Source: Flavobacterium sp. (GTDB taxonomy: Bacteria > Bacteroidota > Bacteroidia > Flavobacteriales > Flavobacteriaceae). From it: 64,000 bases of DNA. Location of the stretch: NCBI RefSeq assembly GCF_004211145.1, contig NZ_SEBS01000015.1:27760-91759 (forward strand). Direction: 5' to 3'. The notes under the pieces were generated by a model. It did no database searches, was not told the origin of the DNA, and saw nothing but the letters and a program-made list of their open reading frames with translations. The position numbers and the translations under genes are program-made. Shown here in pieces: positions 10,466 through 57,738 of this stretch; the stretch's first letter is position 1, and every line of letters begins with the position of its first letter.

Positions 10466-10521
10466 GCCGCGAACTCGCGAATTTCAATCTGATTGCACAG
10501 ACGTATTCGCGACTTCGCGGC
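10466..10521. repeat. Inverted-repeat hairpin (GCCGCGAAnTCGCGAAT family) between convergent genes
   Basis: 10466-10482 (GCCGCGAACTCGCGAAT) pairs with 10505-10521 (ATTCGCGACTTCGCGGC). 16 of 17 positions pair; loop is 22 nt. Related copies occur at 24739-24807 and 57637-57706. Confidence 0.7.
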
Positions 10522-10549
10522 CAAAGTTCACTGCCTAAAGCATAAAAAA

Positions 10550-11947
10550 TTACTTCAAACTCCCGACCATATCCTCAGGTTTTACCCAAGCGTCAAAGTC
10601 TTCTGGGGTAACGTATCCCAAACGCACGGCTTCGTCTTTTAGCGTCGTTCCGTTTTTGTGTGCGGTCTGCGCGATCTCGGCCGATTTGTAATACCCGATT
10701 TTAGTATTCAACGCGGTTACCAACATTAGCGAATTGTCAACCAGTTCCTTGATGCGTTTGTGGTTCGGTTCGATGCCTTGCGCGCAATGTTCGTCGAACG
10801 AGACACAGGCATCGCCAAGCAAGCGCGCCGACAGCAGGAAATTCGCGGCCATGACCGGTTTGAAAACATTGAGTTCGTAATGGCCTTGCATGCCGCCGAC
10901 CGAGATCGCGACGTCGTTCCCCATGACCTGGGCGCAAACCATCGTGAGCGCTTCACATTGCGTCGGGTTTACTTTTCCGGGCATGATCGACGATCCGGGC
11001 TCGTTCTCGGGAATTAATATCTCGCCGATTCCGGAACGCGGACCTGAGGCCAACATGCGGATATCGTTCGCGATCTTGTTCAACGAAACCGCCAATTGTT
11101 TCAAAGCGCCGTGCGATTCCACGATAGCGTCGTGAGAGGCGAGGGCTTCGAATTTGTTCGGGGCCGTTACGAATGAATGACCTGTGAATTTCGCGATGTA
11201 TTCTGCGACTTTGACGTCGTAGCCGGCAGGAGTATTCAATCCTGTTCCGACTGCGGTTCCGCCAAGCGCGACTTCTGAAAGATGCGCCAATGTATTCTTG
11301 ACCGCTTTTATGCCGTAGTTCAATTGGGCGACGTAACCTGAAAGTTCCTGCCCGAGCGTAAGCGGCGTCGCGTCCATCAGGTGCGTGCGGCCGATTTTCA
11401 CGACATTCATGAATTCGGTTGATTTCGCCTGGAGCGTATCGCGTAGTTTTTCGACTCCCGGAAGCGTGACTTCGACGACCGCTTTGTAGGCCGCGATGTG
11501 CATTCCCGTTGGGAAAGTATCGTTAGACGATTGGGATTTGTTCACGTCGTCGTTGGCTTTCACGACCGCTTCACCTTCACCGATCTTGAATCCCGCGAGC
11601 ACCTGGGCGCGGTTCGCGATGACTTCGTTCACGTTCATGTTCGACTGCGTTCCTGAACCAGTCTGCCAGATGACAAGCGGGAATTCCGATTCGAGTTTGC
11701 CTGCGAGGATTTCGTCGCACACGGCTGCGATCGCATCGCGTTTCTCCACCGACAAAACGCCGAGGTCGTGATTCGCGTACGCTGCGGCTTTCTTAAGATA
11801 AGCGAAACCTTCTACGATTTCCTTCGGCATCGAGCCTGACGGACCGATCTTGAAGTTGTTGCGTGAACGTTCGGTTTGGGCGCCCCAGTATTTGTCGGCC
11901 GGGACTTTTACTTCGCCCATGGTGTCTTTTTCTATTCGGTATTCCAT
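10550..11947 (-). CDS. fumC: Class II fumarate hydratase
   Basis: 465 aa with [16 protein letters not shown] signature and [26 protein letters not shown]-terminus. Confidence 0.97.
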
Positions 11948-12330
11948 TGGTTGTTTAACTGTTTAATGGTTTAACTGTTTATTTGTTGATTCGTTGATTT
12001 TATTTCGCTGCGCTCCATACTGTTCGGCTGCGCCTCGGGTGTTGATTTGATTTATTGCCTCCCGTCGATGTGGTCGTTACTAATTGGGCTTCCGATCTTC
12101 CAAACCAAAAACTTCCGAACTTCCCATAGCAGCCCCGATTGAAGCGGCAGCCTTTTGCGGCGGAAGCGCATTTTTTGCCGACGTTTGGCGGCGACCGAAG
12201 GAAGCCCGTCAAACAAGTGCAAAAAAGCGATTCTGCTCAAAAGCTACAGCGGAAAGCGGGAAATGCTGCCCAAAAAAATAGCGTCCCAAAAGTACGCATA
12301 AATGTTTTTTTATAAAAATGTATTCGCCAG

Positions 12331-12361
12331 TTGGTCGGGAAAAATACTATTGTTACATTTG
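12331..12361 (+). promoter_or_regulatory. Candidate promoter (-33 TTG / -7 TACATTTG) for small membrane protein gene
   Basis: TACATTTG at 12354-12361 matches TAnnTTTG, and TTG at 12331-12333 lies 20 nt upstream. Its position argues for the ATG at 12389 rather than 12302. Confidence 0.4.
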
Positions 12362-12388
12362 CGTATAATTCAAAAAATTCCGGAAAAC

Positions 12389-12568
12389 ATGTTTGAATTT
12401 CAACAGTACTTAGGTTTCTTAATGTTCCTGTGTATTTTCACTATCGGCTTCTGGCTTATGATATTCCTTGTCAACTTCGTATTTTACTGGGTTGCAGGAG
12501 CGAGCTGGGAACTTTGGAAAGAAAAACGCGCCGCTAGGAAAGCAAAGTCAGAACAATCGGCAATCTAG
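12389..12568 (+). CDS. Small two-helix membrane protein (hypothetical)
   Basis: MFEFQQYLGFLMFLCIFTIGFWLMIFLVNFVFYWVAGASWELWKEKRAARKAKSEQSAI has hydrophobic helices and a basic tail. It is bracketed by a candidate promoter and a clean terminator. Confidence 0.5.
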   Translation: MFEFQQYLGFLMFLCIFTIGFWLMIFLVNFVFYWVAGASWELWKEKRAARKAKSEQSAI

Positions 12569-12586
12569 AAGCTGGTTGAAGAAATT

Positions 12587-12613
12587 AAAGGGAAGTTTGC
12601 GCTTCCCTTTTTT
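12587..12613 (+). terminator. Rho-independent terminator
   Basis: AAAGGGAAG (12587-12595) pairs with CTTCCCTTT (12602-12610). Loop is TTTGCG and the T-run continues past the stem. Confidence 0.75.
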
Positions 12614-12814
12614 GTTGGCTGTAAGTGAGTGTTTGTTTGCACTTTTAAAGTTTACTACATGGTTTTTTTTTACAGTTAAGATAGTTGAGAAAGTTAAGCG
12701 CTCCTGCACAGTAAACGTATCGGTTCGGTTTTGATTTGAAAAATCATGACTATTTATAAGAAGTCAGAAGTTCAGTATTCCGCACGCCCAAAACCTTTCA
12801 ATTGAATTAATGGT

Positions 12815-12844
12815 AAAAAAAAAGCGCCGGACAAATCCAGCGCT
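12815..12844 (-). terminator. Rho-independent terminator of TonB-dependent receptor gene
   Basis: On the minus strand, AGCGCTGGA..TCCGGCGCT forms 8 of 9 bp with a 4-nt loop, followed by T9 (forward A-run 12815-12823). It lies 14 nt past the stop at 12858. Confidence 0.7.
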
Positions 12845-12857
12845 CATATTCTAACGG

Positions 12858-15329: not shown

Positions 15330-15358
15330 GAAAGGTAAATTTATTCGGCGTTCGAGTG

Positions 15359-15366
15359 CAAAATTA
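15359..15366 (-). promoter_or_regulatory. Candidate -7 box (TAATTTTG) for TonB-dependent receptor gene
   Basis: The reverse complement of 15359-15366 is TAATTTTG, about 30 nt upstream of the ATG at 15329. No convincing -33 TTG was seen. Confidence 0.3.
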
Positions 15367-15461
15367 GACTTTGGTTTAGCGGTTGTTTCATAAAGGTTTG
15401 TTAAAAGGGCGCACTTGTTCGCGATGCGGCTTCCGGCTTTCGACTTTACAATTAGATGACG

Positions 15462-17866: not shown

Positions 17867-17881
17867 TATAATTTTTTCTGA

Positions 17882-18176
17882 ACAGTTGAGATAGTTTAGA
17901 AAAGTTAAGCGATTTGGGTTTACTGTTTAGGTTTTTTGGTTAAAAGAAATATGGTTTTTATTATTGTGAATGTTGAGAGCATTGAGTTCATTAAGGAAAT
18001 CTAACCTTAACAACGCAATGCTCTCAATAATTTAAACTCTTTAGCAGACAGAATTAATCTAAAATTTCAAAATTATTGATTCTACATTTTGAAATAAAAA
18101 CAACTGAACGTTTAATGCGAAAGATTGGTAACGTTAAAAGTTTCTGATCTTAACTTTTCTCAACTATCTTAATTGT
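17882..18176. repeat. Nested inverted repeats in convergent intergenic region (CAGTTGAGATAGTT..AAGTTAAG family)
   Basis: The outer arms are 17882-17911 (ACAGTTGAGATAGTTTAGAAAAGTTAAGCG) and 18149-18176 (reverse complement ACAATTAAGATAGTTGAGAAAAGTTAAG). An inner perfect 12-bp stem joins TTGAGAGCATTG (17973-17984) to CAATGCTCTCAA (18016-18027), with TTAAGG/CCTTAA inside it. A third hairpin pairs ATTTCAAAAT (18064-18073) with ATTTTGAAAT (18086-18095). Confidence 0.7.
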
Positions 18177-18214
18177 TTAAAAATTTCAGGGTAGGATCAA
18201 AACTCAATGATAAA

Positions 18215-18637
18215 TTATTTCTGCATCTTAAAATAATAATCCGCCGAATGTTTCCCGCTGCCGTAAAACAAAAAGAACAAGCAGACCAATAAACAAACCG
18301 AAGAAAACAACAAATTCCGCACACTCATTTCAGTCACGAAATTCAACAACACCGCGCAAATCAAAATAGGCAATTGCGCCCAAATCGCCCAACGCGTCAA
18401 AAGTCCAAAGATGATCATGATGCCGCCCATCATGTGCGCCGCGGCCACGTAATGGAACACGAACATGCCGCCGTCAAAATTGCTCAACTGCGCGATCACG
18501 TCGGCAGTGGCTTGGCTGTTTTTGATAAACAGAACTCCCGTAATGAACAAAAAAGCGCCCAATGCGATACGCAACGCGTCGATTGGATAACTCGTGTGCG
18601 CGTTTGCCCATTTGTTCAAGCTTTTTACTCTATCCAT
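18215..18637 (-). CDS. DoxX-family membrane protein
   Basis: 140 aa, four predicted TM helices, DoxX-like pattern (ALRIALGAFLFITG.., AAAHMMGGIMIIFGLLTRWA). Confidence 0.7.
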   Translation of the reverse strand: MDRVKSLNKWANAHTSYPIDALRIALGAFLFITGVLFIKNSQATADVIAQLSNFDGGMFVFHYVAAAHMMGGIMIIFGLLTRWAIWAQLPILICAVLLNFVTEMSVRNLLFSSVCLLVCLFFLFYGSGKHSADYYFKMQK

Positions 18638-20977: not shown

Positions 20978-21168
20978 ACAATTAAGGTAGTTAAGGTTAG
21001 TTAAGACGGGAACGGGAATTTTGATGTTCTCAATTTATTTGAACCATTAAGATCATTAAGTTCATTAAGATTATTGAGGTCAGTAAATTGAGACTGGGAC
21101 TTTAATCGTTGTCATTGTACTTTAATTTCGGCCGATTTCTCAATACTCAAATCTCAATACTCAAATCT
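20978..21168. repeat. Word arrays (TTAAG/TTGAG words, then CTCAATACTCAAAT words) downstream of carboxyltransferase gene
   Basis: 20978-21008 is ACAATTAAGGTAGTTAAGGTTAGTTAAGACG. 21046-21100 carries CATTAAGATCATTAAGTTCATTAAGATTATTGAGG. 21139-21168 is CTCAATACTCAAATCTCAATACTCAAATCT and abuts the stop at 21175. The 18-nt string at 21146-21163 is identical to 25819-25836. Confidence 0.55.
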
Positions 21169-21174
21169 AAAGAC

Positions 21175-22803
21175 TCAAACCTGAATCACGCCCAAATTAA
21201 ACTTTTTCTCAATAGGGGCGTGGTTCGCCGCCTCAATTCCCATTGAAATCCACGTTCTCGTTTCAAGCGGATCAATGATTGCGTCGGTCCAAAGACGAGC
21301 CGCGGCGTAGTAAGGCGAAACCTGCTCGTCGTAACGCGCCTTTATCTTGTTGAAAAGTTCGGCTTCCTTGGCTTCGTCGACCGTTTCGCCTTTGGCTTTG
21401 AGCGACGAGGCTTCGATCTGCATCAGCACTTTCGCGGCCTGGGTTCCGCCCATGACGGCGAGTTCGGCGCTTGGCCATGCAAAGATCAATCTCGGGTCGT
21501 ATGCTTTTCCACACATGGCGTAGTTTCCGGCTCCATAGGAATTCCCGACGATTACCGTGAATTTCGGCACGACCGAATTCGAGACCGCATTCACCATTTT
21601 CGCTCCGTCTTTGATGATGCCACCGTGTTCCGACTTCGATCCGACCATAAATCCGGTCACGTCCTGAACGAAAACGAGCGGGATTTTCTTCTGGTTGCAA
21701 TTCGCGATGAAACGCGTGGCCTTGTCGGCCGAATCCGAATAGATCACGCCTCCGAACTGCATTTCGCCCTTCTTCGATTTCACGACCTTGCGTTGGTTCG
21801 CAACGATTCCGACCGCCCAACCGTCGATTCTCGCGTAACCCGTAATCAGCGTTTGGCCATAACCGGCCTTGTATTCGTCGAATTCCGAATTGTCGACGAG
21901 ACGTTTTATGATTTCCATCATATCGTATTGTTCGGCGCGCGACTTGGGCAAAATCCCGTAAATGTCTTTTTCGTCCGACAACGGCTTCTGCGGCTTCTCG
22001 CGATTGAATCCGGCCTTGTCGAAATCTCCGATCTTCGAGACGATGTTCTTTATGGTGTCGAGCGCGTCCTTGTCGTCTTTGGCCTTGTAGTCGGTCACGC
22101 CCGAAATCTCGCAATGCGTCGTTGCGCCTCCAAGCGTTTCGTTGTCGATGGTTTCCCCGATGGCGGCCTTTACCAAATAACTTCCGGCGAGGAAAATGCT
22201 TCCGGTTTTATCGACTATGAGCGCTTCATCGGACATGATCGGCAAATATGCTCCGCCCGCGACGCAACTTCCCATGACGGCCGCAATTTGCGTGATGCCG
22301 AGGCTGCTCATGATGGCGTTGTTGCGGAATATGCGCCCGAAATGCTCTTTATCGGGAAAGATTTCGTCCTGCATCGGTAAGTACACGCCCGCGCTGTCGA
22401 CGAGGTAAATGATCGGCAGACGGTTTTCCATCGCAATTTCCTGTGCCCGAAGATTCTTCTTGCCCGTAATCGGAAACCAGGCGCCGGCTTTCACGGTCGC
22501 GTCATTTGCCACGACCATGCATTGCTTGCCGCGTATGTAACCGATTTTTACGACGACTCCGCCTGATGGGCAACCTCCGTGTTCGGCATACATTCCGTCG
22601 CCCGTAAAAGCACCGATTTCTATGCTCGAGGCTTTTTCGTCGAGCAGGTAATCGATTCGTTCGCGAGCCGTCATCTTGCCCTCGGCATGCAGTTTCTCAA
22701 TGCGTTTTGCGCCACCGCCCAATTTCACGGTCGCGAATTTTTGTTTTAGGGAAGAAAGTAAAAGCTTGTTGTGGTCTTCGTTCTGGTTGAAGTTCAAGTC
22801 CAT
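21175..22803 (-). CDS. Acyl-CoA carboxylase carboxyltransferase (beta) subunit (methylcrotonyl-/propionyl-CoA carboxylase type)
   Basis: 542 aa with two crotonase-like carboxyltransferase halves. Motifs GGGAKRIEKLHAEGKMTARERI, ANDATVKAGAW and GNSYGAGNYAMCG. Confidence 0.92.
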   Translation of the reverse strand: MDLNFNQNEDHNKLLLSSLKQKFATVKLGGGAKRIEKLHAEGKMTARERIDYLLDEKASSIEIGAFTGDGMYAEHGGCPSGGVVVKIGYIRGKQCMVVANDATVKAGAWFPITGKKNLRAQEIAMENRLPIIYLVDSAGVYLPMQDEIFPDKEHFGRIFRNNAIMSSLGITQIAAVMGSCVAGGAYLPIMSDEALIVDKTGSIFLAGSYLVKAAIGETIDNETLGGATTHCEISGVTDYKAKDDKDALDTIKNIVSKIGDFDKAGFNREKPQKPLSDEKDIYGILPKSRAEQYDMMEIIKRLVDNSEFDEYKAGYGQTLITGYARIDGWAVGIVANQRKVVKSKKGEMQFGGVIYSDSADKATRFIANCNQKKIPLVFVQDVTGFMVGSKSEHGGIIKDGAKMVNAVSNSVVPKFTVIVGNSYGAGNYAMCGKAYDPRLIFAWPSAELAVMGGTQAAKVLMQIEASSLKAKGETVDEAKEAELFNKIKARYDEQVSPYYAAARLWTDAIIDPLETRTWISMGIEAANHAPIEKKFNLGVIQV

Positions 22804-24732: not shown

Positions 24733-24738
24733 AATTTT

Positions 24739-24807
24739 GGCCGCGAATTCGCGAATTTCATAAGATTCCATCTGAGATTATCCATTTGAGATTAGCGAAT
24801 TCACGGC
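24739..24807. repeat. Inverted-repeat hairpin (GCCGCGAATTCGCGAAT family)
   Basis: 24740-24756 (GCCGCGAATTCGCGAAT) pairs with 24791-24807 (ATTAGCGAATTCACGGC). 15 of 17 positions pair; loop is 34 nt and contains GAGATTA words. It starts 7 nt after the pitA stop and precedes the canonical terminator. Confidence 0.6.
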
Positions 24808-24821
24808 AAAAAAAAACATAC

Positions 24822-24843
24822 ACCGCAGCGATGCGGTTTTTTT
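24822..24843 (+). terminator. Rho-independent terminator after pitA
   Basis: ACCGCA (24822-24827) pairs with TGCGGT (24832-24837). Loop is GCGA, followed by T7; an A-run lies upstream. Confidence 0.75.
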
Positions 24844-24878
24844 ATTCCCGTTTCGTACCTTAGAATAAAATCAAAATC

Positions 24879-25778: not shown

Positions 25779-25784
25779 TAGTTG

Positions 25785-25837
25785 TGAGATTTGAGTCTTG
25801 GGTCTTGAGGTTGAGGCGCTCAAATCTCAATACTCAC
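25785..25837. repeat. Inverted-repeat hairpin (GAGATTTGAG / CTCAAATCTC words) between convergent genes
   Basis: GAGATTTGAG (25787-25796) pairs perfectly with CTCAAATCTC (25820-25829). The loop is 23 nt of TCTTGGGTCTTGAGGTTGAGG words. The right arm overlaps the last codons and stop of the DUF1697 gene. Confidence 0.7.
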
Positions 25838-29155: not shown

Positions 29156-29499
29156 TTGCTGTAGGCTGTAGGCTTTAGGCTTTAAGCTTTAAGCAGTAGG
29201 CTTCTTTTAAGGTAAGGACGACGAGTTTGTTCAGATTGAAGTTAGTCGTTACGTGATTTGCTTTAGGCTGTATGCTTTACGCAATAGGCTTTCGTGTAAA
29301 GTGCGGATGACGATTTCGGTTAATATCTGACAATCTTTTATAAATAGAAAAAGCGGTTTTCAACAATTGAGAACCGCTTTTATTTTTAGTGTATCAGTTT
29401 GACATTTCGAATTCGAAACTGCGTCCAAGTTATTTGGAACCGTTGTTGAATCTAGGATACGTAAGGCCTAAAGCTTACAGCATAAAGCCTAAAGCAAAA
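29156..29499. repeat. TAGGCT/TAAGCT word arrays as inverted pair flanking a bidirectional terminator
   Basis: 29156-29204 reads TTGCTGTAGGCTGTAGGCTTTAGGCTTTAAGCTTTAAGCAGTAGGCTTC. 29257-29292 (TTTGCTTTAGGCTGTATGCTTTACGCAATAGGCTTT) is inverted against 29462-29498; the perfect 13-nt core is 29257-29269 against 29486-29498. The arrays begin directly after the stops of both convergent genes. Confidence 0.65.
29348..29387. terminator. Bidirectional Rho-independent terminator
   Basis: AAAGCGGTTTTC (29350-29361) pairs with GAGAACCGCTTT (29369-29380), including one G-U pair. Loop is AACAATT. An A-run lies upstream and a T-run downstream. Confidence 0.8.
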
Positions 29500-33323: not shown

Positions 33324-33492
33324 TGGAAAGAAATCGTTCGGCAACTTGACCGCGTTAGGGATACAAGCGAAAATCCTTTTGTAAAACAAAAGATTGCAGC
33401 GGTAGCCCGACGGCGCAACTTACTCGTCCAATTTACAAAAAACTTCCATGCGCCGGAACGCCCAAATCTTCATTCTGAAACTTCTCGACCGC

Positions 33493-33519
33493 AATCTTTC
33501 AATCTTTCAATCTTTCAAT
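33493..33519. repeat. Tandem 8-mer AATCTTTC x3 abutting ybaB stop
   Basis: AATCTTTC repeats at 33493-33500, 33501-33508 and 33509-33516, then AAT. AAAGATTGC at 33390-33398 is a short inverted partner of GCAATCTTT at 33491-33499. Confidence 0.7.
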
Positions 33520-36114: not shown

Positions 36115-37155
36115 ATGAAAGAAGAAATAAAAGCTTACAATAATGTCCTGGAATTAATCGGAAACACGCCTTTGATAAGGTTAAACCGTGTCACCGAAAA
36201 CCTCAAAGGAAATTTCTACGCCAAAGTAGAAGCTTTCAATCCGGGACACTCCACAAAAGACAGGATTGCCCTTTATATTATTGAAGAAGCTGAGAAAAAA
36301 GGAATTCTTTCACCAGGCGACACGATCATCGAGACGACTTCGGGTAACACCGGCTTCAGTCTCGCCATGGTCAGCATCATTAAAGGTTACAGCTGCGTTT
36401 TGGCCGTAAGTTCAAAATCTTCGAGAGATAAGATCGACATGCTCCGTTCAATGGGAGCGAAAGTATATGTTTGCCCGGCCCATGTTTCAGCCGACGACGA
36501 ACGTTCTTATTACAATGTTGCCAAGAGATTGCATGAAGAAATCAAAGGTTCGGTTTACATCAACCAATATTTCAACCAGCTTAACATCGACGCACATTAC
36601 AAGACTACAGGTCCTGAAATCTGGGAACAGACGGGCGGCCAAATCACGCATCTCATCGCGTGTAGCGGAACCGGTGGAACTATTTCAGGTGCCGCGAAAT
36701 TCCTAAAAGAGAAAAATCCGAACATCCGGATCCTGGGTGTCGACGCTTTCGGGTCGGTGCTTAAGAAATATCATGAAACCAAAGAATTCGACAACGACGA
36801 GATTTATCCGTACCGAATTGAAGGTCTCGGTAAAAACCTGATTCCATCGGCTACCGATTTCGATTTGATCGACAAGTTCATCAAGGTTACTGATGAAGCC
36901 AGCGCGCACGTGACACGTGAAATCGCCAAGAAAGAAGGTTTGTTCGTAGGTTATACATCGGGCGCAGTCCTGCAAGCGATCAAGCAATATGCCGAGGAAG
37001 GCGAATTCGACGAGAACAGCAATGTCGTCGCGATATTCCCTGACCACGGTTCGCGTTACATGAGCAAGGTGTTCAGCGATGAATGGATGAACGAGCAAGG
37101 TTTCTTTGACAGCGTGAATGCTGAGGAAGCTCAGAAGGTTGAATTTATTAAGTAA
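36115..37155 (+). CDS. PLP-dependent cysteine synthase / cystathionine beta-synthase family enzyme
   Basis: [11 protein letters not shown]-lysine context [21 protein letters not shown] and GTGGTISG motifs. 346 aa. A TAATTTTG -7-like box lies at 36051-36058. Confidence 0.85.
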
Positions 37156-37205
37156 TTGACAGTTGATAATTGACAATTGATAATTGACAATTGGTTTGAC
37201 AATAG
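37156..37205. repeat. TTGACAATTGATAA word array immediately after stop codon (left arm)
   Basis: TTGACAGTTGATAATTGACAATTGATAATTGACAATTGGTTTGACAAT starts at the first base after the TAA stop. 37165-37180 is the perfect reverse complement of 37857-37872. Confidence 0.8.
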
Positions 37206-37208
37206 TAG

Positions 37209-37235
37209 AACTCCGGATTATGTCCGGAGTTTTTT
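37209..37235 (+). terminator. Rho-independent terminator
   Basis: AACTCCGGA (37209-37217) pairs with TCCGGAGTT (37223-37231). Loop is TTATG, followed by a T-run. Confidence 0.85.
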
Positions 37236-37382
37236 CGTTTATAGGCTTTTTAGGATTTTGTGGGCGGGATTTATGTCTTTCATAGATTTGGGGCGGTCGA
37301 ATTTGAAATACATATAATTGGTGATGACTTTAGTCCGGACGTCGCGGGCATTTTTCGGATTGCTCCAACAATCGATTAAGTA

Positions 37383-37690
37383 TCATCGAATCATGAAAAT
37401 GCGTGACTCCATGTGTTTCATATCCCGAAATTTCGATGTTTTCTTTGCATCCGACCAAGTCATGGAATTTATACACGACTGTTTCGGGAGCGAATATGTC
37501 ATGTCCAAATCACCATCGAAGCATTTCATCACTATAGTGGATTTACCGCTAAACGGACCGCGCCCGATCTTTGCCGAGCTCAACAACCTGAAAACACACG
37601 GGCCTTTTTTGCAGCTGCTGTGTAGCGACTCGATCTCGCTTTCGGGAATTATCCGATGTCGATCTTCGTCCATCGCAAGCCAATTCCCGA
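37383..37690 (-). pseudogene. Possible C-terminal remnant of an alpha/beta-hydrolase (S9/dienelactone-hydrolase-like) gene
   Basis: Part of minus ORF 37383-37853. ..DEDRHRIIPESEIESLHSSCKKGPCVFRLL..GRGPFSG.. loosely resembles the G.D..VP...S..L..ALKK.G.PVE......GHGF C-terminal block. The listed ORF start overlaps the yebC terminator, so the full ORF is unlikely to be a gene. Confidence 0.25.
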
Positions 37691-37789
37691 TTCGGCTTGT
37701 TCGAATGTAACACGGAAGCGACCAATGCCAATGCAAGCATGAACCCTCCAAAAAGTTAACCCGCATCCAAAAAATTGATTTATCCGCAT

Positions 37790-37816
37790 AAAAAAAAGCC
37801 CCGGAATCCCAAGGCT
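37790..37816 (-). terminator. Strand-specific Rho-independent terminator of yebC-family gene
   Basis: The minus-strand RNA GCCUUGG-GAUU-CCGGGGC forms a 7-bp stem with two G-U pairs, followed by U8 (forward A-run 37790-37797). Confidence 0.65.
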
Positions 37817-37836
37817 CATATCTACTCCAAAAGCAA

Positions 37837-37885
37837 CAATTGTCAATTGTCAATCGTCAATTGTCAATTATCCATTGTCAATTAC
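37837..37885. repeat. TTGACAATTG word array (right arm, inverted) abutting yebC stop
   Basis: CAATTGTCAATTGTCAATCGTCAATTGTCAATTATCCATTGTCAATTACC ends one base before the stop at 37886-37888. In the gene's own sense it reads GTAATTGACAATGGATAATTGACAATTGACGATTGACAATTG. Confidence 0.8.
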
Positions 37886-38602: not shown

Positions 38603-38863
38603 TTCTATTTTAACTTCAAAATTCGTTGTTCAATATTCAATGTTCGTTATTCTTTCTGCCACGAAGACACGGAGGCACAAAGTTTTCTACTCGTTGTTCT
38701 TTTTGACAGAAAGGCCCAGTGATGCAAAGACACGAAACTCTTTTCGGTGCGCAAAAATAGCATTTTAGTCAGATATTCAAAAGTTTTACGCCAAACGTCA
38801 CCACGTTTTTTTACAGGATTTTCACCAACGATAATAAGCAAGATTCTGTAACTTACAGCCAAT

Positions 38864-39946: not shown

Positions 39947-40463
39947 TATTCTCAGGATTTAGGTTTCGTGGCGCTAAAATAGACAAAAAAGAGGAATTGG
40001 CGAATTTGAAAACTAAGGAATCGGCGAATGTTTGAAACGTTTTCCGTCAATTTAATTTTAAGAAAATATGTGTGTTTCATGTAGCGCGTCATGACTGGAA
40101 TTCCTTACGGATAGCATCGCCCTTTCCCCGGGATCAAGGTCGGCATTTCCAAAATAAGCCAGTTGCAGGAAAAATACACATTTTGATAAATATTCTATTG
40201 GAGCTGTTCCGGCTGTCCGCTGCAATCTTTCTCGAAAAATGCGGGTTTGCGCACTTTGCGACGAGCTTCCGTCGGGCGCTGTCGCAAATCGGCAAACCCA
40301 TGCATTTTTCTTCAAAAGGATTTTCGCTGCCATCCGGGCTAGGGAAACATCCAAACGTCACGATCTGACATTTTAATCACGTGATGTCACTTTCATGTAT
40401 CGGTCAAATTGCGCTTTAAATTCGACCTTGAAAATATCTTCCTAAAAATAAACGACAAAAAAT

Positions 40464-45373: not shown

Positions 45374-45374
45374 G

Positions 45375-46304: not shown

Positions 46305-46322
46305 TTGCGACTTGCTACGCTC

Positions 46323-46439
46323 TTAGACACGCTGCGCTTTGGACACGCTACGCTTTAGATGCTATAAATTATTATAATTTGGTTGTACGTTTCAAAAGTC
46401 TAAAGCCCGCGCGGCGCGTCCAAAGCGCAGCGTGTCTAA
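46323..46439. repeat. Long inverted repeat in thrA-thrB intercistronic spacer
   Basis: TTAGACACGCTGCGCTTTGGAC (46323-46344) is the perfect 22-nt reverse complement of 46418-46439. The arms are built from GACACGCTnCGCTTTnGA words and extend imperfectly to about 46316-46360 and 46398-46459, reaching the thrA stop. Confidence 0.8.
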
Positions 46440-46454
46440 AGCCATCGGCGTGTC

Positions 46455-49070: not shown

Positions 49071-49075
49071 GGTTC

Positions 49076-50690: not shown

Positions 50691-52196
50691 ATGGAAACCC
50701 ACCATTATATCAGTACCGACATTTTAACGCTCGATGCGTTAAGCGAAATCATTTCATCCGACAAAAAACTTGCGCTATCTGAAGAAGCACGACTCAATAT
50801 CCGAAAATGCCGCGAATATCTCGACGCGAAAATGGACAACCAGGACGAGCCGATTTACGGCATCAACACTGGTTTCGGTTCGCTTTACAACATAAAAATT
50901 TCGAACGACAACCTATCCAAATTGCAGGAAAATCTTGTCAAATCGCATGCGTGCGGAGCGGGAGAGGAAGTTCCGACCGAGATCGTAAAACTCATGCTGT
51001 TGCTCAAGATCCAGTCGCTGAGTTATGGTAATTCGGGCGTTCAGGTGGAAACCGTCGAACGTCTCATTGATTTTTACAACGAGGATATTTTACCGATAAT
51101 TTTCACTCAGGGTTCGCTCGGCGCTTCGGGCGACTTGGCTCCGTTGGCGCATTTATCGTTGCCGCTGTTGGGCGAGGGCGAAGTTTGGTTCAATGGGAAA
51201 AAAGAGCATTCGTCCGATATTTTGAAACATTTCAATTGGCAACCGATCGTGCTCAAATCGAAAGAAGGATTAGCGCTCTTGAATGGAACCCAATTCATGT
51301 TGGCGTACGGCGCGCACATTTTGATCAAAGCGCATAAATACTCGTATCTCGCCGATTTGATCGGGACGATTTCGCTCGAGGCGTTCGATGGCCGAAAAGA
51401 ACCGTTCAACGATCTGATCCACATCGTCCGACCGCACAAAGGCCAGATCGTCACGGCCGCTCGCATCAACGTTTTCCTCGAAGGAAGCGAAATCATCAAA
51501 CAGGCGAAAAAGCATGTGCAAGATCCGTATTCGTTCCGATGCATGCCGCAGGTTCACGGCGCTTCGAAGGACGCGATCGATTACGTGCACAAAGTTTTCA
51601 AGACCGAAATCAATTCGGTGACCGACAACCCGAACATCTTCATCGACGCCGATTTGATTTTATCGGGCGGAAATTTCCACGGACAACCGCTCGCATTGGC
51701 ACTTGATTTCCTCGGAATCGCTTTGGCGGAACTCGGAAACATTTCGGAACGACGAACCTATCAACTTATCTCCGGACTTCGCGGATTGCCGGCGTTTTTG
51801 GTCGACAATCCCGGATTGAATTCGGGGTTCATGATTCCGCAATACACGGCCGCGAGCATCGTTTCCCAAAACAAACATTTGGCGAATCCCGCGAGCACCG
51901 ACAGCATCGTGTCGAGCAACGGGCAGGAAGATCACGTGAGCATGGGCGCGAATGCCGCGACGAAAGCGTTGCGCATCATCGACAACCTCGAAACCATTTT
52001 GGCGATCGAGTTGATGAACGCGGCCCAGGCGATTGATTTCCGACGTCCTTTGAAGTCGGGCGAATTCATCGAAACCTTCCTGAAAGCCTACCGCGACGAA
52101 GTTCCGCATGTTAAGGAAGACCGCATTTTGCATTATGATATTGAGACGACGAAGGTGTTTTTGAGGAGTTTTGGGATTAGCGAAGAGTTACTTTGA
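50691..52196 (+). CDS. hutH: Histidine ammonia-lyase
   Basis: MIO-forming GSLGASGDLAPLAHL motif, YGINTGFG, and a Ser-His pair in NLVKSHACGAG (HAL-type rather than TAL/PAL-type). Confidence 0.92.
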   Translation: METHHYISTDILTLDALSEIISSDKKLALSEEARLNIRKCREYLDAKMDNQDEPIYGINTGFGSLYNIKISNDNLSKLQENLVKSHACGAGEEVPTEIVKLMLLLKIQSLSYGNSGVQVETVERLIDFYNEDILPIIFTQGSLGASGDLAPLAHLSLPLLGEGEVWFNGKKEHSSDILKHFNWQPIVLKSKEGLALLNGTQFMLAYGAHILIKAHKYSYLADLIGTISLEAFDGRKEPFNDLIHIVRPHKGQIVTAARINVFLEGSEIIKQAKKHVQDPYSFRCMPQVHGASKDAIDYVHKVFKTEINSVTDNPNIFIDADLILSGGNFHGQPLALALDFLGIALAELGNISERRTYQLISGLRGLPAFLVDNPGLNSGFMIPQYTAASIVSQNKHLANPASTDSIVSSNGQEDHVSMGANAATKALRIIDNLETILAIELMNAAQAIDFRRPLKSGEFIETFLKAYRDEVPHVKEDRILHYDIETTKVFLRSFGISEELL

Positions 52197-52198
52197 TG

Positions 52199-52337
52199 AT
52201 TAGCGGTTTCGAAAATTAGCGGATTCGAAAATTAGCGAATTAGCGAATGGTTTTTTGAAAAAGATAACATTCTCGTTGCTTATCGAACAAATCCGCTATT
52301 CCGCTAATCTGCTAATTCGCTAATCCGCTAATCTAAT
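52199..52337. repeat. ATTAGCGGA/ATTAGCGAA word arrays as inverted pair after hutH
   Basis: The left arm (52199-52250) is ATTAGCGGTTTCGAAAATTAGCGGATTCGAAAATTAGCGAATTAGCGAATGG. The right arm (52291-52337) is ATCCGCTATTCCGCTAATCTGCTAATTCGCTAATCCGCTAATCTAAT. The perfect 14-bp core is 52231-52244 against 52311-52324. More CTAATCC words follow to 52386. Confidence 0.75.
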
Positions 52338-52383
52338 TCATAAAATTATTCTAATCATCCACTAATCCCAATCATCTAATCCC

Positions 52384-52391
52384 TAATTTTG
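52384..52391 (+). promoter_or_regulatory. Candidate -7 box (TAATTTTG) upstream of aguB
   Basis: TAATTTTG lies 19 nt upstream of the ATG at 52410. Confidence 0.3.
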
Positions 52392-52409
52392 CACCCTAAA
52401 ACAACCGCT

Positions 52410-53285: not shown

Positions 53286-53295
53286 ATAATTAGAC

Positions 53296-53388
53296 AATTT
53301 GGAAATTTGAAAATTTGAAAATGCCTAACCGATTATCCTTCGTGTTTTGAGAAAAATTTCCAAATTTCCAAATTTTCAAATTTCCAAA
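53296..53388. repeat. GGAAATTTGAAAAT word arrays forming a 20-bp perfect stem between aguB and aguA
   Basis: 53298-53317 (TTTGGAAATTTGAAAATTTG) is the perfect reverse complement of 53369-53388. The arms are tandem 9-10-nt words. The right arm ends 5 nt before the aguA ATG. Confidence 0.85.
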
Positions 53389-53393
53389 CTAAA

Positions 53394-54455: not shown

Positions 54456-54859
54456 TTCGATAATTGAGTCGAGTAGTTAATTAGAAAATTAGCGGATTAG
54501 CGAATGATACTTGTCTTCCGTGGAGATTTGTATTTTATATTGACGATTGTTGGAGCTTGTCTTCAAGGGGCGTTTGCATCTTCAATGGTAGATTGTCGGA
54601 ATCCATTGTCAAGGCAGCTTGCTTATTCAATTTGCATTTTGTTCCTATTTCTTTGAATGATATGTTCCGATTAGAAAAATTTCTATTTGTTTGATTGACT
54701 AAAATTTTATCGCGAACAGATATTGTTTTCCATAAATTCAAATTCCTTTTATAAGAGCATTTTGGCTCCCAACGCGATCAAAACATCCATCTGCGGGATT
54801 GCCCATCCGCTAATCCGCTAATTTTCTAATTAACTAATTATCTCAATCATCAAATTAAT
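54451..54859. repeat. MITE-like unit: ~55-nt terminal inverted repeats (29 bp perfect) around a ~300-bp core
   Basis: 54474-54502 (TAGTTAATTAGAAAATTAGCGGATTAGCG) is the perfect reverse complement of 54808-54836. The imperfect extension runs to 54451-54506 and 54804-54859, and the left arm overlaps the aguA stop. The arms share ATTAGCGGATTAGCGAAT words with the hutH-downstream arrays. The core holds only a doubtful TTG-start 68-codon ORF (54535-54741, minus). Confidence 0.6.
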
Positions 54860-54936
54860 TATCTAAACACTTTCCCAAATCCTTTCCATCCCAAAAATAA
54901 CGTGCGTAACTTACGGTAACGTTAAATCACACAACT

Positions 54937-55182
54937 ATGGAAACTAACAACAACCGCGATCGACACCAGGAAGATCCGCAAGAAAAGAAACAGAACGCAC
55001 GCGAACACGATGAAAAATACATCGGAGCCGATAAGGACGTTTCGGGAAATGATATCGCAGATGAAGGCCGCGACGAGCGTTCGCATCACCAGCAGTTCGG
55101 GAACCGAAAATACGAATCGTTTAAAAACCATTCATCGGCCGACGATCAACCCACGACGAATACCGGACCCGGAAATATGTAA
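54937..55182 (+). CDS. Small hydrophilic His/Asp/Glu-rich protein (paralog 1), unknown function
   Basis: 81 aa with no hydrophobic segment. METNNNRDRH.. N-terminus and ..YESFKNHSSADDQPTTNTGPGNM C-terminus shared with the downstream paralog. It has its own terminator. Confidence 0.6.
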   Translation: METNNNRDRHQEDPQEKKQNAREHDEKYIGADKDVSGNDIADEGRDERSHHQQFGNRKYESFKNHSSADDQPTTNTGPGNM

Positions 55183-55189
55183 CGAATTG

Positions 55190-55215
55190 AGCCTGTGATT
55201 TTCACGGGCTTTTTT
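55190..55215 (+). terminator. Rho-independent terminator
   Basis: AGCCTGTGA (55190-55198) pairs with TCACGGGCT (55202-55210), with one G-U pair. Loop is 3 nt, followed by a T-run. Confidence 0.8.
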
Positions 55216-55295
55216 ATGCGGTGATTTTAACGCCGGATTTTTGATTTTCGCCAGAATGCTTCGTACTTTTATATTGATTTTCAAATGCATTTGAG

Positions 55296-55538
55296 ATGGA
55301 AACCAATCGCGACAATTTCGCGTCTGATCGGGATGATCAGCGTGAGAACGGCGAGGTTCTGAACAGTTTTCAGGAACCGGAAGGTATCAAAGATGGCGAT
55401 TTATCTGATCGCGACGAACATTCGCACGACAGGAAAAAACACCACGACCATCATCACATTGGGCGCTACAGGTCGTTTTCGAATTATTCGTCGGCGAGCG
55501 GCCAACCGAGCACGAATACGGGCCCGGGACTTTTTTAA
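55296..55538 (+). CDS. Small hydrophilic His/Asp-rich protein (paralog 2), unknown function
   Basis: 80 aa. METNRDNFASDRDD.. N-terminus, HSHDRKKHHDHHHIG His cluster, and C-terminal YRSFSNYSSASGQPSTNTGPGLF. It has its own terminator. Confidence 0.6.
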   Translation: METNRDNFASDRDDQRENGEVLNSFQEPEGIKDGDLSDRDEHSHDRKKHHDHHHIGRYRSFSNYSSASGQPSTNTGPGLF

Positions 55539-55559
55539 CGGTGTCATTCAAACAAAGCA

Positions 55560-55584
55560 AAGCCTGCGAGAAGCGGGCTTTTTT
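55560..55584 (+). terminator. Rho-independent terminator
   Basis: AAGCCTGC (55560-55567) pairs with GCGGGCTT (55573-55580). Loop is GAGAA, followed by a T-run. Confidence 0.8.
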
Positions 55585-55683
55585 ATTTCAGAAAATATGC
55601 CGATGATTTTTAAAGAGTGTAGAATGTAAACGAAAGATTTTCAATCTGATAAAAGCGTTCTTCCGATGCGATGCACAAAATAT

Positions 55684-56199
55684 CTAGACCGAAACGATAT
55701 TCTTGCGATTGCGTCGACGTTTAAAATGCGATTGGCGCATTCGGTCATGTTCGCCTGAAATGATGCTTATGTTTCCATCGGGTTCGAGCATCGCCAGTTT
55801 CACGTCCGAATAATGTTCGACGCCATGTTCACGCATCGCTTCACTCAACTCGTCGTGGCTGATATCGAGTTTGCCCAGTATCTTGAAATCGGGTTTTCCG
55901 TTGTGGATCAGTATCTGAGGTTTGTCGGACAACAGATTTCCGAAGAAACTCGATTTCGCGATGGTTTTCTTGATTACGAAGTTGAGCGCAAACAAGACCG
56001 TTGCGGCCGCCAATCCGCCCCAAAGAGACGTGTCGGGACCGACCATCGCATTCTGCACCGAATTGCTGATGAGTAAAATCAGGATGATATCGAACGTATT
56101 GAGCTGCGACAATTCTTTTTTCCCGAAAATCCGCAACGCGACGACCATGAACACATAAACCGCCGCGCTCCTGATCACGATGTCGAGATAGGGATTCAC
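55684..56199 (-). CDS. DUF421-domain (YetF-like) membrane protein
   Basis: [40 protein letters not shown] is typical of DUF421. Its start overlaps the rimK-like stop by 4 nt. Confidence 0.8.
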
Positions 56200-57572
56200 T
56201 TGATCTGAAGCTTAAAATTCTTCTCGATCGCCTTGATCATTTCACCCGCGATGTCCTTGTTCGTCGCGCCTTCGATGCCTTCGAGTCCCGGAGAAGAATT
56301 CACTTCGAGCAACAAAGGACCTTTCGACGATCGGATGATATCGACGCCCGCGACTTTCAGGTCCATGGCTTTCGCGGCCTTGATCGCGATTTTTTTCTCT
56401 TCGAGCGTGGGTTTTATGACCGACGCCGTTCCGCCCAAGTGAATGTTCGCGCGAAATTCCCCGGGTAAGGCCTCGCGCTGGATCGCGGCGACTACTTTTC
56501 CGTCGATTACGAACAACCTCAGGTCTTTTCCGTCGGCTTCCTTGATAAATTCCTGGACGAGAATGTTCGCGTTCAGACTCTTGAAAGCATTGATTACCGA
56601 TTCAGCGGCTTTCTTCGTCTCGGCCAAAACGACACCTTTCCCTTGTGTGCCTTCGAGAAGCTTGACGATAAGCGGCGTTCCTCCGACCATCTTGATCAAA
56701 TCATCGGTATCCAATGGCGAATTCGCAAAGCCTGTCGTCGGGATATCGACGCCGTGATTGAGCAACAATTGGAGCGAATATAATTTGTCGCGCGATTGCG
56801 TGATGGCGTGCGATGAATTAAGGCAATACACTTTCAAGGCTTCGAACTGACGCGTCAACGCACAGCCGTAAAACGTGATGCTCGGCCGGATTCTTGGGAT
56901 AATCGCGTCGTAATCGTTAAGGATTTTGCCGCCGCGATAATGGATTTCAGGATTGTGTGCGTCGAGTTTCATATAACATTCCTTGATATTCAGGAAATGC
57001 ATTTCGTGGCCGCGCATTTCGCCGGCTTCCATGATGCGTTTGTTGCTGTACAGTTCGGGATTGCTCGCGAGAAGCCCGATTCGAAGTCCGCTTTTCGCCT
57101 TCACTGCGTCGCGATATAAAACTTTAAGATTATCCGACGACGGCTCGCCCAGCACATACGTTTGAGATGGATCGACGATTATTCGACCGATCATCGCTTC
57201 CCGGCCCAACAACATCCTAAATCCCATTGAATCCCGATTCGTGAGCGTCATTTCAACGGGCCAGGTCTGTCCGTCGATTTCCAACTCGGTTCCTATCACG
57301 TAGCGTTGTTCGCGATATCCGCTCGAACTTTTCACGACGCGCTTCCCGATGAGCGGCGCCTCGCAATGCAACACGGTTTTAAGGTTTTTCTGTATCGGGT
57401 TCACGTCGAAACGGACCCAGTTTTCATCGTCTTTGCGGAAAGGCGCGATATTGATGGCGTGCAATGCCGAAGTTTTGGCGCCCGAATCGACGCGCGCTCG
57501 TATTTTAGGAATTCCAAGGGCAGGGAAGGAGCACCATTCCTCGCTTCCGATGACCAATTTTTGCTCTTGCAT
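56196..57572 (-). CDS. rimK: RimK-family ATP-grasp alpha-L-glutamate ligase fused to an N-terminal retropepsin-like (COG4067/DUF785-type) domain
   Basis: The C-terminal ~300 aa is ATP-grasp ([42 protein letters not shown]). The N-terminal ~140 aa ([33 protein letters not shown]..) resembles the domain annotated as 'ATP-dependent zinc protease'. Confidence 0.85.
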
Positions 57573-57703
57573 GAGGCTGATATTTGAATCAAAGTTATCT
57601 CTTTTGGACCTTTTTTCTCCTTAGTATTTAGAAAAATTTAGCCACGAATCACACGAATTTTCTGAACACAAGTCAATTCGGGAAATTCGCGCAATCTTCG
57701 GCT

Positions 57704-57738
57704 AAAAAACAAAACCCGCCAATTTCTCAGCGGGTTTT
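57704..57738 (-). terminator. Rho-independent terminator of clpC
   Basis: Forward AAAACCCGC (57711-57719) pairs with GCGGGTTTT (57730-57738). On the minus strand the hairpin is followed by TTTTGTTTTTT. Confidence 0.75.

Follow-up and report, generated by a model that had tools for sequence, protein, structure and literature searches.

The DNA analysed here, a 64,000-nt stretch of contig NZ_SEBS01000015.1 from Flavobacterium sp. that we refer to in full as the window, is a segment of a Bacteroidota chromosome with ~46% GC, of which 55.5 kb are open reading frames (ORFs) and 8.45 kb (13%) are intergenic. Its genes include those for cysteate synthase (CapA), fumC and prfB, together with aguB and aguA, which were named by homology and Pfam domains. 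The closest relatives of the window are uncultured organisms, in which identity reaches 92% for aguA and 96% for CapA; the nearest relatives of the host are Pedobacter and Flavobacterium, and CapA and the Flavo-1 RNA motif also fit Bacteroidota. Eleven spacers of the window hold a tandem array of short words together with its reverse complement, and these paired elements are our subject. At the sites listed below, a stop codon is followed by a run of a degenerate 7-16-nt word and, later in the same spacer, by the reverse complement of that run. The clearest example reads TAA-(TTGACAATTGATAA)n at 37153-37193 and (TTGTCAATTGTCAA)n at 37837-37884, the latter adjoining the stop codon of the convergent gene.

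Tandem arrays were detected with Tandem Repeats Finder (TRF; period 6-20, score at least 40), with 200 dinucleotide shuffles of the same spacers as the null. To score inverted pairing, each spacer was locally aligned with its own reverse complement, and the best alignment was expressed as a z-score against shuffles. The comparison panel was built from 80 loci at aguB homologues, the syntenic contigs of the closest aguA relatives and 80 loci at CapA homologues; after de-duplication it held 156 loci (2.28 Mb), which carry L numbers below; L092 and L093 come from close metagenome-assembled genomes (95-96% identical). The paired elements of the window are as follows.

10463..10524, no strand assigned: foldback pair of the GCCGCGAAYTCGCGAAT family between the convergent acyl-CoA ligase and fumC genes; arms 10463-10482 and 10505-10524 around a 22-nt spacer; 18/20 inverted match, z 8.9; RNAfold z -5.0 and -5.5; aligns with copies at 24730, at 57628 and in L082 and L083.
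17875..18183, no strand assigned: foldback pair with the words TTGAGATAG, TTTAGAAAAG and TTAAG between the convergent menE-like and DoxX genes; arms 17875-17909 and 18149-18183 around a 239-nt spacer with an inner hairpin; 30/35, z 8.3; RNAfold z -8.3 and -5.2; perfect core 12 bp.
24735..24812, + strand: foldback pair of the GCCGCGAAT family, enclosing an (TCCATYTGAGATTA)x2 array (24767-24794), between tandem genes for a Pit-like transporter and phospholipase A; 22/26 inverted match, z 6.8; a separate classical terminator, 24822-24837, follows the pair.
25785..25826, no strand assigned: short (TTGAGDY)n array and its reverse complement, occupying a 48-nt convergent spacer from stop to stop; TRF array 25791-25809; core 8/8, z 6.0.
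29158..29498, no strand assigned: (GCTKTAG/GCTTTAA)n pair between the convergent PPOX-like gene and prfB; the word is read directly at 29158-29203 and at 29257-29295, and as its reverse complement at 29459-29498; 33/40, z 12.1; arms on either side of a bidirectional terminator (29349-29381); word family also in L158, L163 and L167.
37153..37884, no strand assigned: (TAATTGACAATTGA)n pair between the convergent cysteate synthase gene and the next gene; arms 37153-37193 and 37844-37884; 37/41 positions match, core 16 bp, TRF scores 75 and 73; each arm lies between a stop codon and its own gene's terminator (37207-37233 on +, 37817-37796 on -); word family also at the orthologous site of L092-L100.
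46314..46442, - strand: pair of the 16-nt word (GCTACGCTTTAGACAC)n from thrA stop to thrB start, within the operon; arms 46319-46348 and 46414-46442; 28/30, z 12.4, core 22 bp; RNAfold z -9.5 and -8.7; the word recurs at a different locus in L111.
52199..52333, + strand: (ATTAGCGR[TTCGAAA])n pair after the aromatic-lyase stop; arms 52215-52248 and 52298-52332; 29/35, z 8.5; a degenerate CTAAT tail reaches about 52385; 3' arm partly conserved in L083.
53288..53388, + strand: (AATTTGRA)n pair filling the whole aguB-aguA spacer; arms 53298-53322 and 53364-53388, the second stopping 5 nt short of the aguA ATG; 24/25, z 12.2, core 20 bp; AATTTGRA is found at another locus in L014.
54456..54857, + strand: TTAATTAG / ATTAGCGR pair beginning at the base directly past the aguA stop, upstream of a small conserved gene (54937-55182); arms 54456-54506 and 54804-54854 around a 297-nt spacer; 44/51, z 23.7, core 29 bp.
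57637..57706, - strand: third GCCRCGAAT-family foldback; arms 57637-57666 and 57677-57706; 23/31, alignment z only 0.4; RNAfold z -5.4 and -4.9; a member of the recurring family, followed by a terminator-like stem at ~57718-57740.

TRF found 19 arrays in the window, one of them coding (48698-48727) and 18 intergenic, compared with a mean of 0.36 and a maximum of two intergenic arrays in the shuffles. Inverted alignment gave z = 6 to 24 in nine spacers (10458-10549, 17867-18214, 24733-24878, 25779-25826, 29156-29499, 46305-46454, 52197-52388, 53286-53393 and 54456-55683). Across the eleven pairs, RNAfold z ranges from -1.6 to -9.5 on either strand, and ten of the eleven reach -3.7 or better on both; the weakest fold is that of the 48-nt spacer 25779-25826 (-1.6 and -2.9). 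An earlier note on this DNA, made from the sequence alone, had described a shared architecture of word arrays arranged as inverted pairs, and the number of arrays (18 against 0.36), the pairing scores and the folds measured against shuffled controls all bear it out. Each of the ten sites that it called clear was recovered by alignment, arm matching or folding; of its four weaker sites, 57637-57706 holds up, and 12086-12275, 33390-33519 and 20978-21168 do not. Perfect complementary cores, put at 10-29 bp in that note, measure 8-29 bp. The first arm lies 0-19 nt from the stop codon, not 0-15 nt, save for the aligned arm of 29156-29499, which begins 101 nt into the spacer; the array itself begins there 2 nt past the stop.

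The pairs are found where genes end. In the window they occupy 6/7 convergent spacers, about 5 of roughly 20 tandem spacers and 0/6 divergent spacers; by the alignment test there is no inverted pair in the six divergent spacers, and none in the six spacers of the window's first 10 kb. Among the 156 panel loci, which contain 202 intergenic arrays, convergent spacers have 1.24 arrays per kb, tandem spacers 0.85, divergent spacers 0.23 and coding sequence 0.087, making tandem and convergent spacers 10- to 14-fold denser than coding DNA. Inverted repeats scoring at least 30 are present in 30% of the panel's convergent spacers, 13% of its tandem spacers and 5.5% of its divergent spacers, and are 3-5 times commoner than distant direct repeats. 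The description of the arrays as belonging to gene 3' ends is thus right in that they are enriched in spacers holding a 3' end, but it needs qualification, since in tandem spacers of the panel arrays lie against the start of the next gene just as frequently (63) as against the stop of the preceding one (60). The C-termini of proteins encoded next to arrays are conserved right up to the stop codon, indicating that the arrays do not encroach on genes.

All three settings originally proposed are represented: spacers of convergent genes, spacers of tandem genes and the interior of operons. In general, the arms in convergent spacers stand outside the classical terminator, and those in tandem spacers take up the space as far as the following promoter or start codon. 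Within operons, the arms span the spacer from stop to start, lying 12 and 5 nt away from the neighbouring codons at aguB-aguA and 14 and 12 nt away at thrA-thrB; in the panel, L088 has pairs between rpsK, rpsD, rpoA and rplQ, which most bacteria transcribe together. The four separate classical terminators that had been pointed out are present, at 24822, 29349, 37207 and 37817, and are distinct from the arrays. The pair at 52199-52333 ends upstream of a promoter-like TAATTTTG at 52384-52391, ahead of aguB, which we take to fit the Bacteroidetes -7 promoter consensus TAnnTTTG. This motif is conserved in L082 and L083 and lies 19 nt upstream of the ATG at 52410, which is probably the true aguB start; the ORF finder had placed it at the TTG at 52389.

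Similar elements are widespread among relatives. With a cut-off for arm periodicity calibrated against shuffles, 37 of 168 panel hairpins are periodic in both arms, versus 8.4 expected by chance. The periods of these 37 word-array hairpins are 7 (18 cases), 8 (nine), 14/16 (seven), 10 (two) and 15 (one), the word being 7 or 8 nt long or a 14/16-nt double. Word-array hairpins have an arm GC content of 36%, a median loop of 49 nt and, in the panel, a median gap to the downstream start of 46 nt; arms are ~20-50 nt long in the window and up to ~120 nt in relatives. Examples outside Bacteroidota come from contigs of Gemmatimonadales, Acidobacteriota and Verrucomicrobiota.

Two further observations concern the panel. 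The most extreme case is L050, labelled as an alphaproteobacterial metagenome-assembled genome, whose spacers are mosaics of five or more different heptamer or octamer arrays in series (2046-2644, 3818-3982, 6421-6695, 10889-10999, 12053-12299 and 18423-18611). Identical mosaics turn up at several spacers, some in one orientation and some in the other, and inverted (CACTCAAT)n and (TGATTGAC)n arrays stand on either side of the gene at 2645-3817. A different hairpin repeat, GTCATTGCGAGGAACGAAGCAATC...GATTGCTTCGTTCCTCGCAATGAC with its variants, occurs in several of the loci L026, L029, L002, L103 and L035 (e.g. L029:10890-10975) and occupies like sites, including the aguB-aguA junction.

Comparison of orthologous spacers shows that the elements turn over quickly: even where the flanking proteins are 86-96% identical, the spacers carry different word families or none. 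Between aguB and aguA, the window has AATTTGRA, L082 has TCGCGAAT, L081 and L085 have another pair, and many lineages have GTCCGRAA; other words at this junction are TTCATGG (L007), CTCTGCG (L010), CTTTGTG (L011) and GTTRCCG (L018). Each word is accompanied by its own complement, and several genomes have no spacer there at all. A pair appears or is exchanged as a whole. In the spacer after aguA, the pair of the window is unrelated to that of L081, and L082 and L085, with a spacer ~370 nt shorter, have none. In L081, 22 perfect CACTCAGG units at 2590-2690 face an arm of about four CCGGAGTG units; this array is a very recent, one-sided slippage expansion, and the locus is likely hypervariable. 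Slippage had been among the processes suggested for the window, and with 22 perfect copies of one unit in L081 it is clearly at work. One arm can grow without the other. At the CapA spacer the basal state is a bare bidirectional terminator, which is all that most relatives have in their 45-90 nt, and the clade of the window has added TAATTGAYAAT arrays on both sides of the terminator.

Several word families are also dispersed. The GCCRCGAAT-type hairpin (GCCGCGAAYTCGCGAAT/GCCGCGAAT) has three copies in the 64 kb of the window and others in L082 and L083, and in an alignment of these copies the arms are conserved and the loops are free to vary. ATTAGCGA, AATTTGAA, GCTKTAGG and the 16-mer are common to unrelated loci and genomes. 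Overall, 76 links of relatedness connect the words, against a mean of 44 in a composition-matched null. Together with the family alignment, this confirms the claim that word families recur at unrelated loci.

The elements have a consistent polarity. Read in gene sense, the stop-proximal arm is rich in G and poor in C (a G-first arrangement): G exceeds C in 17 tandem cases against 3 (p 0.002) and in 11 convergent cases against 1 (p 0.001). This bias is lacking in the non-array hairpins of the panel. It persists after masking of all stop and anti-stop triplets and, since orthologous panel spacers are partly non-independent, we also collapsed the data to 22 independent word families, where it is retained (15 vs 4, p 0.019). 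Calling starts from ORFs should, if it has any effect, work against such a bias. A G-first bias is not expected from a symmetric process at the DNA level, so the elements are oriented with respect to transcription. We also considered whether the first arm serves to supply stop codons in all three frames, and rejected this idea: stop triplets number 8.3 per 100 nt in sense and 6.4 in antisense (p 0.13), and only 10/36 arms have all three frames closed. In sum, these elements are restricted to 3'-end spacers, occur lineage-wide, turn over, grow by slippage, are dispersed and are polarised with respect to transcription.

In many lineages, the aguB-aguA spacer consists of (GTCCGRAA)n, a gene of ~120 amino acids matching TIGR02436 / PF05635, and (TTYCGGAC)n. 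This four-helix-bundle gene belongs to the family of 23S rRNA intervening sequence (IVS) proteins and of Avd from diversity-generating retroelements. It is carried by L003, L008, L014-L017, L025, L027, L083/L084 and L086-L088 (L087 being from the cultured Flavobacterium pallidum, CP029187), which represent several Bacteroidota orders, and no copy is present in the window. The arms around it are conserved over several families and orders. Each copy with examined context sits at aguB-aguA, Flavobacterium included, and the idea of a roaming cassette carried by the arms was therefore rejected for this subfamily; the gene is better described as an old resident of the operon. A distant paralogue (L028:16172-16507) lies elsewhere and is bracketed by (GGGACAA)n and (CCCTGTC)n. 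In some loci, the 3' arm, (CTTTCGGAC)n, is in frame within the first codons of aguA (L008:11370-11470, L014:11265-11330 and L086/L087:10361-10400), giving aguA N-termini such as MPQQNLPTSGLPNLPKQLGY. Arrays thus add low-complexity N-terminal extensions or cause start codons to be mis-called.

We regard the elements as fast-evolving foldback repeats with tandem-word arms, akin to the short tandemly repeated repetitive (STRR) hairpins of cyanobacteria and to repetitive extragenic palindromic (REP) elements, an explanation that we consider the best available and about evenly balanced between right and wrong. Such elements would originate and spread like REP- or STRR-type intergenic repeats, either because preformed hairpins are copied and pasted or because a palindrome such as that of a terminator grows outward, with slippage following, and they would persist downstream of stop codons, where insertions would cause least harm. 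If they act at all, they probably act as RNA stem-loops. A transcribed pair would form a long stem-loop at the 3' end of an mRNA or between cistrons, which might, for example, be a barrier to 3'-to-5' exonucleases or insulate against read-through. Rho prefers C-rich, G-poor unstructured RNA (its rut preference). Given this preference, a G-first arm would offer Rho no suitable loading site while it is unpaired and awaiting its partner, a wait that would last for the transcription of a 40-700-nt loop.

Several observations weigh against this explanation. On the transcribed strand of tandem spacers, G·U mismatches are not in excess of A·C mismatches, either for all hairpins (34 vs 40) or for word-array hairpins (17 vs 15), and predicted folding is about equally good on both strands for the eleven pairs (RNAfold z). 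The absence of a wobble excess and the equal folding of the strands mean that there is no sign of selection on the RNA helix itself. A check for compensatory changes between arms, which the earlier note had proposed, yields no RNA signature. The arms of the convergent pairs 37153-37884 and 29158-29498 enclose a classical terminator, such that normal transcripts would carry one arm only. T-runs past the distal arm are not enriched, being found in 4/21 (19%) of word-array hairpins. The L081 arms differ by a fixed mismatch per unit and by 5-fold in copy number, and at the CapA spacer of three lineages (L122, L130/L141 and L110) the arrays flanking the terminator are unrelated and non-complementary, so that inverted pairing, as originally described, is common and not obligatory. 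Arm-to-arm co-variation at the CapA spacer is not significant (own-pair 36.1 vs cross-locus 32.0, with 397/5040 permutations at least as high), and concerted evolution of the arms at this cysteate-synthase spacer was accordingly rejected as a trend alone. Signs of mobility are likewise missing: the longest direct repeats flanking the elements average 3.45 nt versus 3.41 nt in shifted controls, giving no evidence of target-site duplications, although short duplications might escape this test because arm boundaries are fuzzy. No transposase or other dedicated gene was found, with about half of the window proteins unannotated and no search made for the REP-associated tyrosine transposase (RAYT). 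Lastly, the panel statistics describe two genomic neighbourhoods across many genomes, not whole genomes, with genes called as longest ORFs.

Many of these observations would be expected if the arrays were neutral debris, the main alternative, which we consider unlikely but worth taking seriously. Slippage-prone 7-8-nt words would expand between stop codon and terminator, where a compact genome is under least constraint, and be copied across by template switching or fold-back priming at the terminator palindrome; the arrays would be functionless, and their 3'-end bias would mark where junk is tolerated. Quick turnover, presence or absence at orthologous sites, the runaway growth of one L081 arm, the symmetry of arrays about pre-existing terminators, the occurrence of non-complementary arrays and the lack of a G·U signature are all in line with this. 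So is the prevalence of heptamers, which are the commonest long simple-sequence repeats in prokaryotes generally, as far as Mrazek 2007 is summarised in PMC4679880. However, a symmetric DNA-level process does not predict the G-first polarity, and it leaves the sharing of word families between unrelated loci and genomes unexplained; moreover, conservation of the GTCCGRAA arms around the four-helix-bundle gene over families and orders suggests constraint. An improbable alternative is that the stems punctuate operons by joining a stop codon to the next start, as an RNase III processing site comparable to the stems from which 23S rRNA intervening sequences are excised, or as a device for translational coupling, in which a terminating ribosome would melt the base of a stem masking the next start. 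Arms do adjoin stop and start at aguB-aguA, at thrA-thrB and at rpoA-rplQ of L088, they bracket the gene of the 23S rRNA IVS family in several lineages, the 3' arm enters the first aguA codons in L008, L014, L086 and L087, and coupling has been proposed for the STRR hairpins between hupS and hupL (PMC2670836). Nonetheless, this reading suits only the pairs within operons: most pairs are convergent or lie upstream of a separate promoter or terminator (52199-52333 and 24735-24812), the median gap to the downstream start is 46 nt, and there is no G·U signature.

The strong 3'-end association and the very stable predicted stems could also suggest that the arrays are themselves transcription terminators, bidirectional where genes converge, in the form of long AT-rich hairpins without T-runs; indeed, the family member at L083:8320-8357 has the canonical form, a hairpin plus T-run. 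We consider this quite improbable, given that classical GC-stem/T-run terminators stand beside or between the arms, that only 19% of word-array hairpins have a T-run, with an arm GC content of 36% and a median loop of 49 nt, and that pairs lie within the rpsK-rpoA-rplQ operon. A role at the DNA level, as arrays of protein-binding sites or as inverted repeats bounding invertons, which are common in Bacteroidota, is highly improbable. Word arrays resemble iterated binding sites, the complementarity of the arms is of the Watson-Crick kind instead of wobble, and arms can bracket genes, but the dozens of unrelated words rule out a single sequence-specific binder, no recombinase gene was noticed among annotated neighbours, many inter-arm spacers are just 20-60 nt long and promoter-free, and the transcription polarity would be unexplained.

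Some of the paired sites in the window have further features in or beside them. The last codons of the aromatic-lyase gene (52176-52184, GGG ATT AGC GAA GAG) hold one ATTAGCGA word, which is the word of the array past its stop codon; orthologues have the same end residues in other codons, and this copy is either chance or the seed of the array. A small charged ORF of 81 amino acids (54937-55182, and again 55296-55538), ending ...SADDQPTTNTGPGNM and matching no Pfam family, is conserved after aguA in L081, in L085 and, as two tandem copies, in L082; a separate terminator accompanies each. The ~570 nt between the terminators of the 37153-37884 pair (37234-37795) are missing from sister genomes. 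No relatives were found for the + strand ORF 37318-37710 inside this pair; the - strand ORF 37383-37853 resembles large repeat-domain (Calx-beta-type) proteins over a single unit of ~60 residues only and is probably a gene fragment. The possibility that the long-spacer pairs of the window carry cargo was rejected: the small ORFs are blank in Pfam, and the spacers have no DNA relatives save one inner hairpin.

Besides the pairs, the window contains unpaired arrays and copies of the Flavo-1 motif, as follows.

11951..11999, - strand: unpaired (TTGTTTAA)n and (GTTGATTC)n directly upstream of the fumC start codon (TRF), with no significant fold.
20982..21179, - strand: arrays (TTAAGGTWAG)n, (CATTAAGRT)n and (TCTCAATACTCAAA)n (TRF), the last adjoining the stop codon of gene 21175-22803.
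33492..33519, - strand: lone perfect (CAATCTTT)x3.5 array adjoining a stop codon (TRF, 100% matches).
38615..38645, - strand: unpaired (TTCAAWATTCRWTG)n just 5' of the start of gene 37886-38602 (TRF).
12127..12267, + strand: Flavo-1 RNA motif (RF01705), 49.2 bits in Rfam against a gathering score of 42; not part of the array system.
40202-40344, - strand: second copy of Flavo-1 (RF01705), 55.0 bits, above the gathering score of 42.
33344-33416, + strand: sub-threshold Flavo-1 (RF01705) match, 37.9 bits, below 42.

The arrays at 20982..21179 show no significant pairing (inverted z 0.6; RNAfold z -0.5 and -1.5). At 33390-33519, which overlaps the sub-threshold Flavo-1 match, there is a single reverse-complement word (33390-33397; core 8/8, z 0.9) and no significant fold. 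The supposed array pair at 12086-12275 is accounted for by the Flavo-1 motif at 12127-12267. Searches of Rfam at gathering and at permissive thresholds gave no family that matches the arrays, and Flavo-1 was the only match. In a flavobacterial transcriptome study, Flavo-1 matches lie "indistinctly in sense or antisense" of transcribed regions, and many are untranscribed (PMC9723704). This strand indifference and frequent lack of transcription suggest that Flavo-1 may be another DNA-level dispersed repeat rather than a small RNA.

About a third of the window spacers that contain a 3' end are occupied by the paired elements, which on that showing are a major part of the non-coding DNA in an ecologically dominant phylum. 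If they shape 3' ends, convergent read-through or operon expression, they bear on the interpretation of Bacteroidota transcriptomes and on the design of genetic parts. The G-first polarity offers a concrete new handle on function. Gene calling is affected, with arrays translated as spurious ORFs or as N-terminal extensions such as the 'LPTSGLP' of aguA. Their fast turnover makes the arrays potential markers for strain typing, as with STRR-PCR in cyanobacteria.

The elements appear to lack a name, a curated model and an assigned function, and in the literature that we searched the paired layout is nowhere described for Bacteroidota. They differ from several familiar classes. The repeats of clustered regularly interspaced short palindromic repeats (CRISPR) are 21-48 nt long and separated by unique spacers of similar length, whereas the units here are contiguous, 7-16 nt long, and followed by a second, inverted array. 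Miniature inverted-repeat transposable elements combine inverted repeats with target-site duplications, and the flanking direct repeats here (3.45 nt) match the control (3.41 nt). An intrinsic terminator is likewise a hairpin just past a gene, but the elements have long, imperfect, AT-rich arms (36% GC), a median loop of 49 nt and a T-run in only 19% of cases. The intervening sequences of 23S rRNA are bounded by inverted repeats, whose long stem RNase III cleaves, and some carry an ORF. They resemble the elements in that an ORF of the PF05635 / TIGR02436 family is bracketed by arms between aguB and aguA; by contrast, IVSs are in rRNA and the elements in mRNA spacers, and most window pairs enclose no ORF. 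Eukaryotic Foldback transposons have long terminal inverted repeats made of short tandem repeats, with a middle that is variable and sometimes coding. The tandem-repeat arms and, at some loci, the bracketing of a gene are alike, but Foldback elements are eukaryotic, much larger and of documented transposition, whereas the elements here have neither target-site duplications nor evidence of transposition.

Closer parallels exist in bacteria, and the earlier note, which recognised no named repeat class here, needs correction on this point, given the precedents of cyanobacterial STRR hairpins (PMC2670836) and heptamer arrays in Bacteroidetes (PMC4679880). Intergenic direct repeats of the heptamer TAACTGA occur in Beggiatoaceae, Cyanobacteria and five Bacteroidetes (PMC4679880), and like the arrays here they are short-word, mostly heptamer, intergenic arrays that adjoin start or stop codons; they differ in consisting of one word, in direct repeats mainly upstream of starts with a single inverted case, whereas here there are many words and the inverted partner is defining. 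The REP and BIME sequences of proteobacteria and the REPINs formed by inverted REP doublets are extragenic hairpins found typically after gene 3' ends and in operons, rarely in divergent promoter regions, and mRNA stabilisation and termination have been proposed as their roles (PMC3116915, PMC3733652). The elements resemble them as small extragenic hairpin repeats with multiple families per genome and inverted doublets. The GCCGCGAAYTCGCGAAT family has three copies in 64 kb and others in L082 and L083, and most other pairs have locus-specific words. A REP arm, however, is a single conserved 20-40-bp palindrome and not a run of tandem words, and copies here are far more diverse; the GTAG/CGTC tags and the RAYT transposase link of REPs were not noticed here, and no search aimed at either was made.

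The closest likeness is to STRRs. In cyanobacteria, words of 7 bp repeated in tandem fold into hairpins in intergenic DNA, either close to the 3' end of a gene or within an operon, and roles in stability, translational coupling and termination have been put forward for them (PMC2670836); Nostoc spacers, for example, have (TTGTCAG)n followed by CTGAC-type words (PMC2408588). The two systems have in common tandem words of ~7 nt, an intergenic location, several families per genome, reverse-complement hairpins, and sites at gene 3' ends or in hupS-hupL-like spacers. Short-word tandem repetition, intergenic location (18/19) and hairpin pairing (eleven pairs, and 37 in the panel) are all found for the arrays studied here. 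They differ in phylum, and 8-nt and 14/16-nt periods are as prominent here as 7-nt periods; the words of the window are unlike the classical STRR1-3 heptamers. With a Bacteroidota host and different words, the elements are STRR-like and not STRR members in the strict sense. In the STRR literature searched, we did not find the stop-abutting inverted-pair layout, the G-first polarity or turnover at orthologous sites described. A bolder proposal, which we advance as speculation and think distinctly unlikely, is that Bacteroidota, together with some Gemmatimonadota, Acidobacteriota and Verrucomicrobiota, harbour a large uncharacterised class of transcription-oriented foldbacks with arms of tandem 7-8-nt words, whose families would spread without any known transposase, which would be a Rho-invisible device at gene boundaries that insulates or punctuates transcripts, and which would be IVS-like around the Avd / 23S-IVS-family gene in the agmatine operon. 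If this were true, the puzzle of cyanobacterial STRRs, open since 1990, would be joined to a phylum-wide system with a testable mechanism.

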